DNA of 64,000 bases from the NCBI GenBank assembly GCA_021324305.1, contig JAJPJI010000029.1:9170-73169 (forward strand). The letters run 5' to 3'. Below, in pieces: positions 26,679 to 30,718 of the stretch; within the stretch, counting starts at the first letter, position 1, and every line of letters starts with the position of its first letter. A program made the position numbers and the translations under genes. The DNA comes from Gammaproteobacteria bacterium (GTDB lineage: Bacteria > Pseudomonadota > Gammaproteobacteria > DSM-16500). The notes beneath the pieces were generated by a model, which searched no databases, had not been told where the DNA came from, and saw only the letters and a list, made by a program, of their open reading frames with translations.

Positions 26679-27986
26679 TTATCCCAGATAAGGTGACCAT
26701 GCTGGATCTTGTGCCTCTCCATTGCGCGCGGGCAAACGCAACTGGATCCGGCCATCTGATGAAACCATGCCCAACACATTTCTGCCGCCATAAACAGTAT
26801 CATAAAGAATCATGCTGCCATTGGGTGCAACACTAGGTGAAGAACTATCGCCAGCTGAGCTGTTAAGAACCCGCATGTTTCCTGAATCCAGATCAAGAAT
26901 GGCGATATTATATACTCCGGAGACACGGTGTATCATGGCAACATATTTTCCATCCGACGTATATGAGGCCCTGGCATTGTAATCACCATCGTATGAAACA
27001 CGCGAAATGGACCCACCGGCCAGCTTAACCTGATAAATTTGTGGACCGCCACTACGGTTGGAAGTGTAAAGCAAGGATCTACCGTCTGGCGACCATGCCG
27101 GTTCAGTATTGATATAAAAATCGTTCGTCACCTGTGTCAGGCGTCCTGAGGCAATGTCCATGACATAAATGTTTGGTGAACCACTTTTCGAAAGAACAAG
27201 AGCCAGCTTGCGGCCATCCGGCGACCAGGCAGGTGCGCCATTAATACCAGGGAAGTTACTTAACAAGCGTCTACCGCCGGTTGCGACATCTTCGAGATAA
27301 ATCCCCGCTCTCTGGTTTTCAAATGATACATACGCAATCTGTTTACCGTTTGGCGACCACGAGGGTGACATGATAGGCTCAGGTGAATTCAGCAAAGGTC
27401 TTGGATTATATCCATCCTGATCCGCAACCTCTAGAATGTAGCGCTGGGGTGCATTTTGATAACGCTGGACGACAACATAGGCAATCTTGGTTGAAAAAAT
27501 ACCGCGGGTGCCCGTAATTTGCTGATAAACAAGATCACTGATGTGGTGTGCAAGCTTGCGCATCTCACCGCCGGAGACAGTGAATTTTTTATTTAGCACA
27601 ACACCGGCCGCGCCGCTGCCGCGATACATGTCCAACAGCTGGAAGCTGACCTGATAACTGTTCCCGCCAAGCGACGTAACCTTGCCGACGACCACATTGT
27701 CCGTACCCAGACTCCGAAAATAGTCAGTTGATACATTTGCTGCATCATTAGGAAACTGATTCAGCGCATTACGACCATAGACTTTGAACCGTCCACTGTT
27801 TTGCAAATCGGCAGTCACTATCCCGGAGACATCCTGTGGAGCGTCAGCCTGGCTTGCGAATGGCACAATTGCGATCGGAATCGCACCAGACACTCCGCGT
27901 GTCAATTCCATGCTTAAAATGGCAAATGCTGAATACGGTACTATTAATGTGTATGTGAATAATAAAAGGCTGATAAGTTTGCGCAT
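26679..27986 (-). CDS. tolB: Tol-Pal beta-propeller protein TolB
   Basis: [17 protein letters not shown], repeated P.WSP.G. Likely start 27986 after GAGGTG. Confidence 0.97.
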
Positions 27987-28087
27987 AATGCACCTCACCT
28001 CTTAGAAATTGTCAACTTTATATCATATCTTTATCCGGGAGGCTAATGCTGCTTCCCCCTTCTTTGGCATTTGCCGGGGGACAGGTT

Positions 28088-29572
28088 CTATTTTGTGACC
28101 ATCTTTTCGACCACTTCCTTTTCGGATATCTGAGTTCCGATCAACCTGCCCTGCATAAGGTTACAGCCCAATCCTTTCCAGATCAGGGCCTGGTGATCTG
28201 AATCAATTCCCTTGATAACGAGCTCAGCATGCAAACTTTTTGACAGCTGAATCAGTGACTTTGCCAGATCTACGCTCTGTTCATTCTGTTCAATATCATC
28301 AAGCAGATTTTGATCCAGCTTTAGATAGTTGACATGAGAGTGCTTGATATCACGCAATGAAAACGGTCCAGCCCCGAAATCATCGATAGCAATCTTGATA
28401 TTGAGGTACTTGATCATATTGAATGCCTTTTCCAGCACATCGAATGATATTTGCGATATGTTTTCCCGGATCTCGAGCAGCAGCCACTCCGGATTAAAAT
28501 CCAGCTCCTGCAACACCTGTGATATTCGATAAACGAAATGACTGTTCTCCAACTGGCGGATGGACATTGATATTCCCAGGAAATCAGGATAAAAATTCAG
28601 CGTACGCCAGTAGGTAAATTGCCGGCAGGCATTTTTTAACAGCCATTCGGAAATGACATTCAACTTGCCCTGTTTTTCTGCATAGGCAACCAGTTCAGCG
28701 GGAGCAATCAGGCCTAACTCGGGATGCTGCCAATGCAGCAGTGCTTCCATACAAAATATTTTTTCATTCAGCATGTTTTTGATGGGCTGATAAAAGATCA
28801 GAAATTCACTTGGGAGCGAATCGCGCTTAATTCCCGTTGACAAGGCCAGTTCACGCTGGCTGTTAATAAAGATTTTTTCCTGGAAGAACTGATAAATCTG
28901 ATTGCCCTTTTTCTTGGCCATGCGCAATGCATGATCAGCGCTTCTAAACAGCGTCGCTGCATCCTGCCCATCAGACGGATAAATCGAAATGCCTATGCAT
29001 GCGGTCAAGTAAAGGTGATGCTCATTTACCTGCACAGGCTGCGCCAGGGCTTGCAGCATGCGTTGCGCAACAATCGCGGCGGTTTCCGGCTTACCCAGCT
29101 GTGTCAGCAGCACAGCAAATGTGTCTTTCGCAAATCGGCTGATGCTGTCAACCTGCCGTATGCAGGATTTCAGGCGTACTGATAGTTCCCGCAAGACTGC
29201 ATTTCCCACTTCGTTTCCCAGGGCATCATTGATGACTTTGAAGTCATCAATATCTATGTACAAGATCCCCATGGTTAATTGATAGCGCGCACCTTCCACA
29301 ATCGACTGATTGACCCGATCCTCAAATAATTGCCAGCCTGGCAGTCCGGTTACCGGATCTTCAATGGCATGACGCAATTTGGTTTTTAATGTGCTTAATT
29401 CGTAGCGCAGCGTCTGCTCGCTGTTGCGGAGCTTGAGTAATTCTGATTCATTGGCCGTAGCGGCTGATTTTAATTTTTTTGCCTGATGCCTGCATTGCAG
29501 CAATGCAAATACGGAAAAAATTAAGCCAATGCTGATTACTGCCAGTATGAACACCACTGTAACCATCTCCAT
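28088..29572 (-). CDS. Membrane-anchored GGDEF-EAL protein with degenerate active sites
   Basis: N-terminal TM helix. GGDEF position reads AKDTF with RQVD I-site; EAL and DDFGAG present but AEGVE reads IKGID. Confidence 0.9.
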   Translation of the reverse strand: MEMVTVVFILAVISIGLIFSVFALLQCRHQAKKLKSAATANESELLKLRNSEQTLRYELSTLKTKLRHAIEDPVTGLPGWQLFEDRVNQSIVEGARYQLTMGILYIDIDDFKVINDALGNEVGNAVLRELSVRLKSCIRQVDSISRFAKDTFAVLLTQLGKPETAAIVAQRMLQALAQPVQVNEHHLYLTACIGISIYPSDGQDAATLFRSADHALRMAKKKGNQIYQFFQEKIFINSQRELALSTGIKRDSLPSEFLIFYQPIKNMLNEKIFCMEALLHWQHPELGLIAPAELVAYAEKQGKLNVISEWLLKNACRQFTYWRTLNFYPDFLGISMSIRQLENSHFVYRISQVLQELDFNPEWLLLEIRENISQISFDVLEKAFNMIKYLNIKIAIDDFGAGPFSLRDIKHSHVNYLKLDQNLLDDIEQNEQSVDLAKSLIQLSKSLHAELVIKGIDSDHQALIWKGLGCNLMQGRLIGTQISEKEVVEKMVTK

Positions 29573-29586
29573 ATGGAAAAGTTGGC

Positions 29587-29607
29587 GTCATTGCGAGACG
29601 CAATGAC
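29587..29607. repeat. REP/RPE-like palindrome GTCATTGCG-AGA-CGCAATGAC
   Basis: Perfect 9-bp inverted repeat with GTCATTGCG/CGCAATGAC ends typical of palindromic repeat elements. Confidence 0.55.
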
Positions 29608-29669
29608 AACGGATACCATTGATAGAATACAATATTTACGCAGCTGTTCCTAGAACCCGTTTTAAAACC

Positions 29670-29717
29670 GCCAGTATTGCATGAATGCTTCCCTGGGTTG
29701 TCATTGCACAATACTGG
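29670..29717. other. Long imperfect hairpin directly after tolA
   Basis: ccagtattg/caatactgg 9-bp outer stem; may terminate or stabilise the tolA transcript. Confidence 0.45.
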
Positions 29718-29722
29718 TGGCT

Positions 29723-30718
29723 TTAGCCAGGCCCCATGCCGCCATCCGCTGCCAGGATGTTTTCCGGTTTAACTTTCAGGACAAACTGACGGAAAGCCGC
29801 AAAGGCATCGGGATCCGAAGGTACTGGTAACGGTGACGCCTTGAGAACCGCAGAACGCGCAGAACTGTCAAGGGAAGGATCACCGCTAGTACGGGTTACC
29901 TGCACATCCAGCACCATGCCGCCTGGCGCAAGTCTGATCATCAGTTCACAATACAACTTTCGGTTGGCCTGAGTCGGCACTATCCAGTGCTCACTGATGG
30001 CCTGCAGAATGAGCGCCTTGTATTTGTTCACCTCACCCTGGGATTGACGCGACTGCATGCCTTGTAACTTGATTTCCTCATTTAATAATTGCTGCCGCAA
30101 TGACTGCTCGGCCTGTTCGCGCAAGGTTTTCTGGAATTGTGCCTGTAATTGCTTTTGCTTTATTTTTTTCTGCTTGTCAGACTGCTTCTTGATATCCGCC
30201 AACAAGTCATTGGCAAACAGATTACGCTGCTTCAAGACTTCCAGCGCTTTTTGTGCCGCAAGCTTCTTTTTATCGTCCGCTTTCTTTAAAGCTATCACAT
30301 CCTTCTTAATTTCCGCCTGTTTGACGGGCTGCGGTGCAGGCTCTATTTTCGGTTTGGGCAACGGCGTGACCTGACGCTGGGCCCGCGGCTGCGATGCAGG
30401 TTGCTTGGGTAAAATCCTGCTCTTTGCAGAATCACCCAGTATGACTGCACTGATGACATCATTTTTATTCGTGTTTTCGATCACTGGCATGGTTGATGAA
30501 AAATCAAAACCAAGCACCAGCACCAGCAAGACACCGATATGAAAAACAATCGATGTTAAAAAAAAATTATTCATCGGGGTTACCCCGCGGCTTGCCACGG
30601 GATTGTCTGCGCGATGGGGTTTCTCAAGAGGAGAATCGCGAGTCTCCCCTTGAGTCGATACGCGGGGATTTACTCCTCGCGTGTCGAAATTAGATTGAGT
30701 TTCCTGGGGCGCCGCCAT
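29723..30718 (-). CDS. tolA: Cell envelope integrity protein TolA with N-terminal palindrome-derived extension
   Basis: TM helix with S..FH motif, Pro/Lys/Gln-rich stalk, C-terminal SGDPSLDSSARSAVLKASPLPVP; follows tolR. Confidence 0.93.
   Translation of the reverse strand: MAAPQETQSNFDTRGVNPRVSTQGETRDSPLEKPHRADNPVASRGVTPMNNFFLTSIVFHIGVLLVLVLGFDFSSTMPVIENTNKNDVISAVILGDSAKSRILPKQPASQPRAQRQVTPLPKPKIEPAPQPVKQAEIKKDVIALKKADDKKKLAAQKALEVLKQRNLFANDLLADIKKQSDKQKKIKQKQLQAQFQKTLREQAEQSLRQQLLNEEIKLQGMQSRQSQGEVNKYKALILQAISEHWIVPTQANRKLYCELMIRLAPGGMVLDVQVTRTSGDPSLDSSARSAVLKASPLPVPSDPDAFAAFRQFVLKVKPENILAADGGMGPG
30575..30685. repeat. Cluster of palindromes in the 5' end of tolA
   Basis: cggggttaccccg; accccgcggcttgccacgggatt (REP-like half); ctcaag-a-ggaga/tctcc-c-cttgag; gatacgcgggga/tcctcgcgtgtc. 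Confidence 0.65.

Follow-up and report, generated by a model that had tools for sequence, protein, structure and literature searches.

A degenerate GGDEF-EAL protein encoded between tolA and tolB in the Aquicella lineage is a candidate I-site receptor for cyclic di-GMP

The stretch of DNA analysed here (the window) comprises 64,000 nucleotides of a gammaproteobacterial genome (GenBank assembly GCA_021324305.1, contig JAJPJI010000029.1, positions 9,170 to 73,169), and on its minus strand a gene for a protein with degenerate GGDEF and EAL domains lies between tolA and tolB. Our favoured explanation, to which we assign a probability of about one half, is that this gene encodes a lineage-specific, non-catalytic, inner-membrane receptor for cyclic di-GMP (c-di-GMP), which senses its ligand through the inhibitory site (I-site) of the GGDEF domain and is expressed at the tail of the tolQRA unit. 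This gene founds a family that is confined to a single lineage, and its product appears to descend from bifunctional enzymes of the MorA/DibA type. That its output is related to Tol is suggested by the position of the gene and is a tentative part of this explanation.

We compared the window protein residue by residue with active MorA (4rnh) and PA0575 (5m3c) and with the EAL enzyme TBD1265 (2r6o), and aligned its GGDEF domain to that of PleD by profile alignment (hhalign). Family counts were taken from 119 members, and those for R171 and other positions from 40 sequences. On the GGDEF side of the window copy, LPNR reads LPGW, GH..GD reads GN..GN and GG[DE]EF reads AKDTF; the combination of GG[DE]EF with the substrate residues of the active site (A-site) that characterises an active diguanylate cyclase is missing. 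GG[DE]EF occurs in 0/119 family members. What is conserved instead is [S/T/A]-K-D-T-F (K in 110, D in 114, T in 90 and F in 116 of the 119), so that xKDTF is a new conserved signature of the family, across which the NR of LPNR is also replaced by G-W.

The EAL domain of the window copy retains EAL, ExxE, DDFG, K-x-D and QG. EALxR reads EALLH (Arg to His280), the conserved Asn is Ser335 and EGVE reads KGID, with Lys454 at the first Glu; given Ser335 and Lys454, the residue set of an active EAL phosphodiesterase is incomplete. Mutagenesis of RocR and TBD1265 reportedly identified this Asn and the first Glu of EGVE as metal ligands in active EAL enzymes. Across the family, Asp, Gln or Asn takes the place of the Glu of EAL in 86/119 members, Pro or Ser that of the conserved Asn in 102/119, and Gln or Lys that of the first EGVE Glu in 103/119; the second Asp of DDFG is retained in only 49/119 and the Arg of EALxR in only 7/119. 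Within the EAL domain, conservation is lowest at the catalytic positions. It should also be noted that the window copy is atypical, since the consensus in the family reads GY..GD and, in place of EAL, mostly "DAL"; having kept both EAL and DD, it is among the less degenerate members. An earlier reading of the window, made from its letters only (the sequence-only reading), had listed the substitutions in LPNR, GH..GD, GGDEF, the conserved Asn and EGVE and called the protein double-degenerate. Alignment to MorA, PA0575 and PleD confirmed each substitution, and the description holds both for the window copy and for its relatives. As judged from these residues, both active sites are degenerate family-wide, and the protein very probably has no catalytic activity.

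The I-site shows a different pattern of conservation. The primary I-site of PleD consists of R359, D362 and R390, plus R313 supplied in trans (PMC7288161), and the window protein has all three of the residues that act in cis (R139, D142 and R171). The sequence-only reading had noted an intact RQVD at the canonical 5-residue spacing, and this survives comparison with the family, where R139 and D142 are invariant (119/119). R171 is likewise invariant (40/40 sequences), and the KPETAAIVAQ block in front of it forms the most conserved ten residues of the protein (lowest entropy, 0.56 bits). An ungapped BLASTP alignment placed Q170 opposite PleD R390; it was overruled by the gapped profile alignment and the PA0575 alignment, both of which favour R171. 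Because the loss of catalysis leaves no product inhibition to maintain, the I-site is best explained by ligand sensing, and the protein is somewhat more likely to bind c-di-GMP than to have lost it as a ligand.

Other potential ligand sites are less persuasive. Residues N115, D107, K220 and mostly D124 of the GTP pocket are kept in the family; N115 and, at the family level, D124 contact guanine and hardly vary, which makes a nucleotide at the A-site remnant possible. The EAL pocket keeps the Gln of YQP and the QG motif, which are used by FimX, without the Arg. Since the EAL domain is less conserved than the GGDEF domain (mean entropy ~1.6 and ~1.1 bits, respectively) and the Arg is absent from 112/119 members, an EAL receptor in the style of LapD or FimX is less likely than an I-site receptor in the style of PelD or PopA. 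The sequence-only reading had offered PelD, LapD and FimX together as models; the PelD part of this proposal is favoured, and the LapD and FimX parts lose ground. The family also has a conserved surface of its own, LEKAFNMLKY, in which K382 and N385 are invariant.

The 494-amino acid (aa) protein consists of an N-terminal transmembrane (TM) helix, a long stalk helix, the GGDEF domain and the EAL domain. In an AF2 model built from the 40-sequence family alignment (mean pLDDT 88), residues 2-70 form one unbroken helix, of which residues 4-25 are hydrophobic and the remainder is the stalk. The model superposes on MorA (4rnh/4rnf) with TMt 0.82-0.83 and a root-mean-square deviation of 3.5-3.9 Å. 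The TM helix starts at residues 1-3 in nearly all family members, and there is therefore no periplasmic domain; a Pfam scan of the protein found no HAMP, REC or PAS domain. Of the N-terminal TM helix and coiled coil that had been described earlier, the TM helix is well placed at aa 4-25, and the coiled coil is a prediction from the long helix and a heptad-like pattern.

The open reading frame (ORF) and the Pfam identities of its neighbours bear out the earlier claim that the gene is inserted between tolA and tolB. The minus-strand order is ruvA-ruvB-ybgC-tolQ-tolR-tolA-[GGDEF-EAL gene]-tolB-pal-cpoB. Upstream are TolA (C-terminal domain PF06519), TolR (ExbD), TolQ (MotA_ExbB), a YbgC-type thioesterase and RuvB/RuvA; downstream are TolB (TolB_N and PD40 repeats), Pal (OmpA) and CpoB (TolA_bind_tri and TPR). 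In the window the gene is separated from tolA by 150 bp and from the tolB ATG by ~100 bp. Its start codon is probably the GTG at 29557, which would put the TM helix at the extreme N-terminus: GGAG lies 9 nt ahead of this GTG, the Shine-Dalgarno (SD) sequence GGAGAT is kept in 4/4 aligned loci (the window and three relatives), and in each of the three relatives a start codon lies 9-11 nt 3' of it.

We then consider how the family is distributed. In a large protein database it comprises at least 120 clusters at 90% identity, with members of ~490 aa and 47-80% identity, and the named clusters come only from Aquicella lusitana, A. siphonis and "Gammaproteobacteria / uncultured Coxiellaceae" metagenome-assembled genomes (MAGs). 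When 185,579 species were scanned, each represented by one genome, the family turned up in the Aquicella clade only, and the GTDB genus that has it is the one holding A. lusitana and A. siphonis. An orthologue is present in 21/24 genomes of the same GTDB genus (40-58% identity), while in 16 other families of the class the best matches, with ~33% identity, are to GGDEF-EAL proteins of the ordinary multi-domain kind. In genome G024, which is 72% complete and in which neither tolA nor tolB was found, a 489-aa paralogue (G024:C18, L041:1563-2981) is 32-33% identical and lies outside any tol context.

The sequence-only reading had proposed synteny in relatives as a check. In 28/28 orthologue-bearing relatives (21 in the genus and 7 further MAGs) the gene follows tolA on the same strand, with the caveat that one contig ends just upstream of the gene and tolA is not visible there. 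In 24/28 of these relatives tolB comes next, either immediately or after an inserted gene. In outgroups from 8/8 families the gene is absent and tolA and tolB are adjacent, and the same arrangement is found in two genomes of the genus, G015 (1.4 Mb) and G002. The gene therefore does not behave as a core Tol-Pal component, being missing from all of these genomes; it does hold a conserved, co-oriented position in the cluster in the 28 relatives, as accessory genes such as ybgC and cpoB do.

In a maximum-likelihood tree of TolB, both gene-less genomes are nested within gene-bearing clades: G015 is sister to G005 (support 94/98), and G002 groups with G022 and G008. Because of this nesting, the simplest history would be one in which the gene was acquired once, immediately behind tolA, at the root of the Aquicella lineage and was then lost at least twice. 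The tree of the gene shares its well-supported pairs with that of TolB, although its branches are ~1.8x longer, and this agreement fits vertical descent. At the level of these comparisons, the family shows vertical inheritance under purifying selection. The genome of the window encodes 16 GGDEF domains, so a c-di-GMP network exists in it, and the two genomes without the gene encode 1 and 2. A tie between loss of the gene and the size of this network is suggestive only and was not retained, since gene-bearing genomes with just 3-4 GGDEF domains exist.

Several features of the junction point to transcription of the gene with tolQRA. In six relatives the spacer between tolA and the gene is only 16-30 bp, each with its own GGAG-type SD sequence, which leaves no room for a promoter. 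Where the cluster is split, in x64 (on a 645-kb contig) and in G004, the GGDEF-EAL gene stays with tolQRA and other genes follow. Upstream of tolB, a box of the form TGnTATA[AT]N is found in 17/25 gene-bearing loci, in 0/2 gene-less genomes and in 0/8 outgroups, with a chance rate of 1.4% per window searched. Measured from an alignment anchor 12 nt upstream of the tolB ATG, it lies at 19-33 nt in 13 loci and at 48-72 nt in 4. This pattern suggests that a dedicated tolB promoter arose together with the insertion of the gene. We infer that the GGDEF-EAL gene is the terminal cistron of (ybgC-)tolQ-tolR-tolA and that tolB-pal-cpoB is started separately. The co-expression with Tol-Pal that had been proposed from the window is thus at best half right: it is plausible for the tolQRA part, to judge from the short spacers and split clusters, and is weakened for the tolB part, which has a promoter-like box of its own and in several genomes is cut off from the gene by opposite-strand insertions. 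Coordinates of all features are collected in Table 1.

Table 1. Positions of the GGDEF-EAL gene, its domains and key residues, and flanking features in the window
Feature	Position	Strand	Remarks
Degenerate GGDEF-EAL ORF	28088..29572	-	494 aa from ATG 29572; probably 489 aa from GTG 29557
N-terminal TM helix	29498..29563	-	aa 4-25, hydrophobic, then basic residues; predicted N-out, C-in anchor
Stalk/signalling helix linking TM helix to GGDEF	29363..29497	-	aa 26-70; continuous helix in AF2 model
GGDEF domain, degenerate	28901..29365	-	aa 70-224; Pfam PF00990, 135.1 bits vs cut-off 23.8, E 2.4e-39
I-site RxxD (R139-Q-V-D142)	29147..29158	-	5 residues before AKDTF; aligned by hhalign to PleD R359/D362
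A-site remnant AKDTF replacing GG[DE]EF	29117..29131	-	aa 148-152; aligns to PleD GGEEF
R171, third primary I-site residue	29060..29062	-	within KPETAAIVAQR; equivalent of PleD R390
EAL domain, degenerate	28136..28810	-	aa 255-479; Pfam PF00563, 176.1 bits vs cut-off 31.3, E 9.6e-52
tolA (upstream neighbour)	29723..30718	-	Pfam TolA C-terminal domain; actual start probably Met49 at 30574
Spacer between tolA and the gene, 150 bp	29573..29722	-	two hairpins; fold z = -3.1
Hairpin, 17-nt arms (88% complementary)	29663-29725		overlaps tolA stop codon
Hairpin, perfect 9-bp stem GTCATTGCG/CGCAATGAC	29587-29607		just before SD
TGATATAAA box, extended -10-like, candidate tolB promoter	28017..28025	-	31 nt upstream of tolB ATG
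tolB (downstream neighbour)	26679..27986	-	ATG 27986, preceded by AAGAGGTGAGG

These observations allow a mechanism to be proposed. The gene would be expressed as the last cistron of (ybgC-)tolQ-tolR-tolA, and its single TM helix and long stalk would hold the protein in the membrane as a parallel dimer. At the I-sites, intercalated (c-di-GMP)2 could lock or re-orient the two GGDEF-EAL modules, as in product-inhibited cyclases, PelD and PopA, and this re-orientation would change the partner engaged by the cytoplasmic part. The partner is speculative; expression as the last tolQRA cistron favours the cytoplasmic face of the TolQ/TolR/TolA motor or the late divisome, and envelope constriction or outer-membrane tethering would then become responsive to c-di-GMP. 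Control of the Tol motor is mechanistically reasonable, because TolQR is a motor of the MotAB/ExbBD family (Pfam MotA_ExbB and ExbD) and there is the precedent of YcgR acting on MotA. In its most specific form, in which the dimer, once loaded with (c-di-GMP)2, binds to or lets go of the TolQ5R2 stator on its cytoplasmic side, or affects the recruitment of the stator to the divisome, this proposal is doubtful. Developmental switching, which the sequence-only reading had named as another possible output, is pure speculation.

A number of observations weigh against this explanation. At the I-site, the profile alignment places Glu93, not Arg, at the position of PleD R313 (WspR R198), the trans-acting Arg that serves in cross-linking. 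An invariant Arg96 lies three residues, or one helical turn, past Glu93 on the same helix; R96 was considered as the R313 equivalent and dropped, since the profile alignment puts Glu93 there. The sequence of the TM helix shows no conservation across family members (entropy 2.2-2.7 bits), and the stalk is poorly conserved except for a charged/hydrophobic periodicity; together these two regions lie at 2.1-3.0 bits. No TolA-like SHLS-type motif or any conserved residue was found in the TM helix in the family alignment, and this lack of conservation speaks against specific pairing of the helix with the membrane segments of TolQ, TolR or TolA. The two losses left tol-pal intact, showing that the gene is not needed for Tol-Pal function. 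Furthermore, the tolA/tolB junction is permissive, having in different genomes also taken up a 362-aa ORF, a LysR gene, a PP2C-like gene and a gene for a DUF6159 membrane protein, and the position of the GGDEF-EAL gene may therefore reflect hitch-hiking in a rarely rearranged cluster. The 150-bp spacer with its hairpins makes independent or attenuated transcription possible in the window, and a scan for consensus promoters and terminators over 26.4-32.5 kb gave counts that did not differ from those of shuffled sequences, with nothing in the two spacers flanking the gene. Caution about the Tol link is advised by the lack of conservation in the TM helix, by the openness of the junction to insertions and by the two clean deletions.

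The same observations feed an account in which the gene is a passenger: a functional c-di-GMP receptor or scaffold, with a target unrelated to Tol-Pal, that landed once at a permissive tolA/tolB boundary and persists because the tol-pal cluster is almost never rearranged, leaving only retention or deletion. We regard this account as possible, though rather unlikely. In agreement with it, at least five genomes carry unrelated insertions at this junction, some of them on the opposite strand. The two deletions that cleanly restored tolA-tolB adjacency, the unconserved TM helix and the promoter-like box of tolB also fit, and the hairpin spacer of the window, and a TATTCT element that recurs in long spacers, would permit the gene a promoter of its own. 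What a passenger leaves unexplained is that the gene is on the tol strand without exception, that the tolA spacers of six genomes are too short for a promoter, that the gene remains with tolA at every cluster split, and that it has not relocated in any of the 28 relatives despite divergence to 40% identity.

Two further alternatives change what the protein does rather than why it is where it is. It could be a ligand-independent adaptor, a membrane scaffold that binds protein or RNA as CsrD or YdiV does and makes no use of c-di-GMP. The loss of the EALxR Arg from nearly the whole family, the drift of the metal ligands, the Glu at the PleD R313 position and conserved surfaces such as LEKAFNMLKY, which resemble protein interfaces rather than ligand sites, would suit such a role. 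On the other hand, R139, D142 and R171 have stayed invariant although product inhibition is pointless, which is difficult to account for unless a ligand binds; N115 and D124 hardly vary either, and the score against the CsrD equivalog is far under its cut-off (91 vs 663 bits). An adaptor of this kind is accordingly an improbable one. Alternatively, weak c-di-GMP hydrolysis may persist, or the A-site remnant may sense GTP as Caulobacter PdeA (CC3396) does. Degenerate GGDEF domains that sense GTP have been described (PMC7288161), the GTP pocket residues are largely kept, and the window copy holds 6 of ~9 catalytic EAL positions. However, the window copy and >85% of the family lack the Asn and the first Glu of EGVE, a Lys stands in place of the second Gly of the GG turn, and the catalytic positions rank lowest in conservation within the EAL domain, which makes residual catalysis or GTP sensing very improbable.

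Some additional features of the locus and its relatives should be mentioned. In the tolA gene of the window, the first 48 codons of the listed ORF (30574-30718, minus strand) have no counterpart in any relative, and similarity to the relatives' TolA starts at residues 31-54; the unmatched codons suggest that translation starts at Met49 (MNNFFLTSIVFH...). The hairpins of the tolA spacer were considered as conserved regulators and rejected, as neither is kept in an 80%-identical relative (L080). Being unconserved in the closest relative, they may be REP-like elements of this genome. An apparent 4-nt overlap of the gene with tolB in G017 was an artefact of tblastn extension, and the real spacer is ~23 bp. 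Upstream, ybgC is found between ruvB and tolQ only in some members of the genus (G000, G016, G007, G023, G018, G001 and x64), and in many others ruvB is directly followed by tolQ and ybgC is absent; the loci compared were L019 (G015) and L023-L040.

Insertions at the junction differ between genomes. Only in G013 does an ORF lie between tolA and the GGDEF-EAL gene (L027:1890-2978, 362 aa, same strand), and part of that stretch reads N. Opposite-strand insertions between the GGDEF-EAL gene and tolB occur in G016 (A. lusitana-type), G019 and G006. The insertion in G016 (L020:2398-3423, plus strand) and G019 (L021:2073-3062, plus strand) is a gene for a PP2C-like phosphatase of 330-340 aa, which lies opposite-strand between the GGDEF-EAL gene and tolB in both. 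Its Pfam PP2C match is limited to profile positions 69-255, and the N-terminal metal-binding motif of PP2C, "xAVFDGHGG", is found C-terminally, after DNxSVxV, so the product looks like a circularly permuted PP2C. In G006 the insertion encodes a DUF6159 membrane protein (L023:4567-5385), on the opposite strand just after the GGDEF-EAL gene. In x64 an opposite-strand ORF of 673 aa with a glycine motif resembling those of S-adenosylmethionine methyltransferases (L064:4982-7003) precedes the split of tol-pal.

Full-text literature searches found no description of a c-di-GMP effector, GGDEF or EAL gene inside tol-pal, and a Tol-Pal review emphasises the conserved gene order of the cluster. A single, indirect link has been reported, namely an effect of YbgC on the level of c-di-GMP in Shewanella (PMC5479800). 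A deep lineage that keeps a catalytically dead, I-site-intact protein as the tail of tolQRA is therefore a candidate for second-messenger input to the Tol motor or the late divisome. If the Tol link is true, YcgR-type logic on a 5:2 ion-driven motor would extend from flagella to envelope maintenance. If the protein regulates the motor itself, it would be the first case of a second messenger braking or disengaging a motor of the Tol/Ton family, analogous to YcgR on MotAB, and an amoeba-associated bacterium could tune outer-membrane constriction, vesiculation or cell size to c-di-GMP. If the Tol link is false, the protein would still be a clean natural case of a tandem GGDEF-EAL enzyme turned into an I-site-only receptor. 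Experiments are possible, since both A. lusitana and A. siphonis are in culture and have orthologues.

Among known systems, MorA (PA4601) and PA0575/DibA-type proteins are closest by sequence (phmmer E 1e-71, 29-30% identity over both domains) and by fold. These are active enzymes with large sensory N-termini, whereas the window protein has lost both active sites and carries just a TM helix and stalk ahead of its domains. DibA is the best NCBIfam match, yet it scores 316 bits vs a cut-off of 980, and no equivalog in the NCBIfam scan reaches its cut-off. YcgR and MotI, which act as brakes on MotAB stators, are a functional analogy only, since the window protein has no PilZ domain; the gating of MotA by YcgR is the subject of a reference listed in PMC7288161.

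Receptors with dead domains provide the closer comparisons. LapD is, like the proposed receptor, an inner-membrane protein with an S-helix and dead GGDEF and EAL domains, and it couples cytoplasmic c-di-GMP to an envelope process; its structures (6pwj/6pwk, 3pjw) are among the structural matches. However, LapD binds c-di-GMP in the EAL domain and signals through periplasmic and HAMP domains, both of which the window protein lacks together with the EALxR Arg, and sequence similarity is low (17% identity; NF045673, 83.8 bits vs a cut-off of 1020). FimX, a c-di-GMP receptor with dead GGDEF and EAL domains that localises the type IV pili machine, is a weak sequence match (E 4e-19); it is cytoplasmic, carries REC and PAS domains and binds at the EAL site (PMC7288161). 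CsrD of E. coli is membrane-anchored, degenerate in both domains and non-enzymatic, but has two TM helices and a HAMP-like region, makes no use of c-di-GMP and targets the CsrB/C RNAs (NF008281, 90.9 bits vs 663).

PelD and PopA have a dead A-site and keep the RxxD I-site as the ligand site (PMC7288161), which is the mechanism that we favour for the window protein. PelD is also membrane-anchored, but with four TM helices, a GAF domain and no EAL domain, and PopA has two receiver domains; homology of either to the window protein is seen only in the GGDEF fold. Overall, the protein would be most like PelD and PopA in mechanism and is most like LapD and CsrD in appearance.

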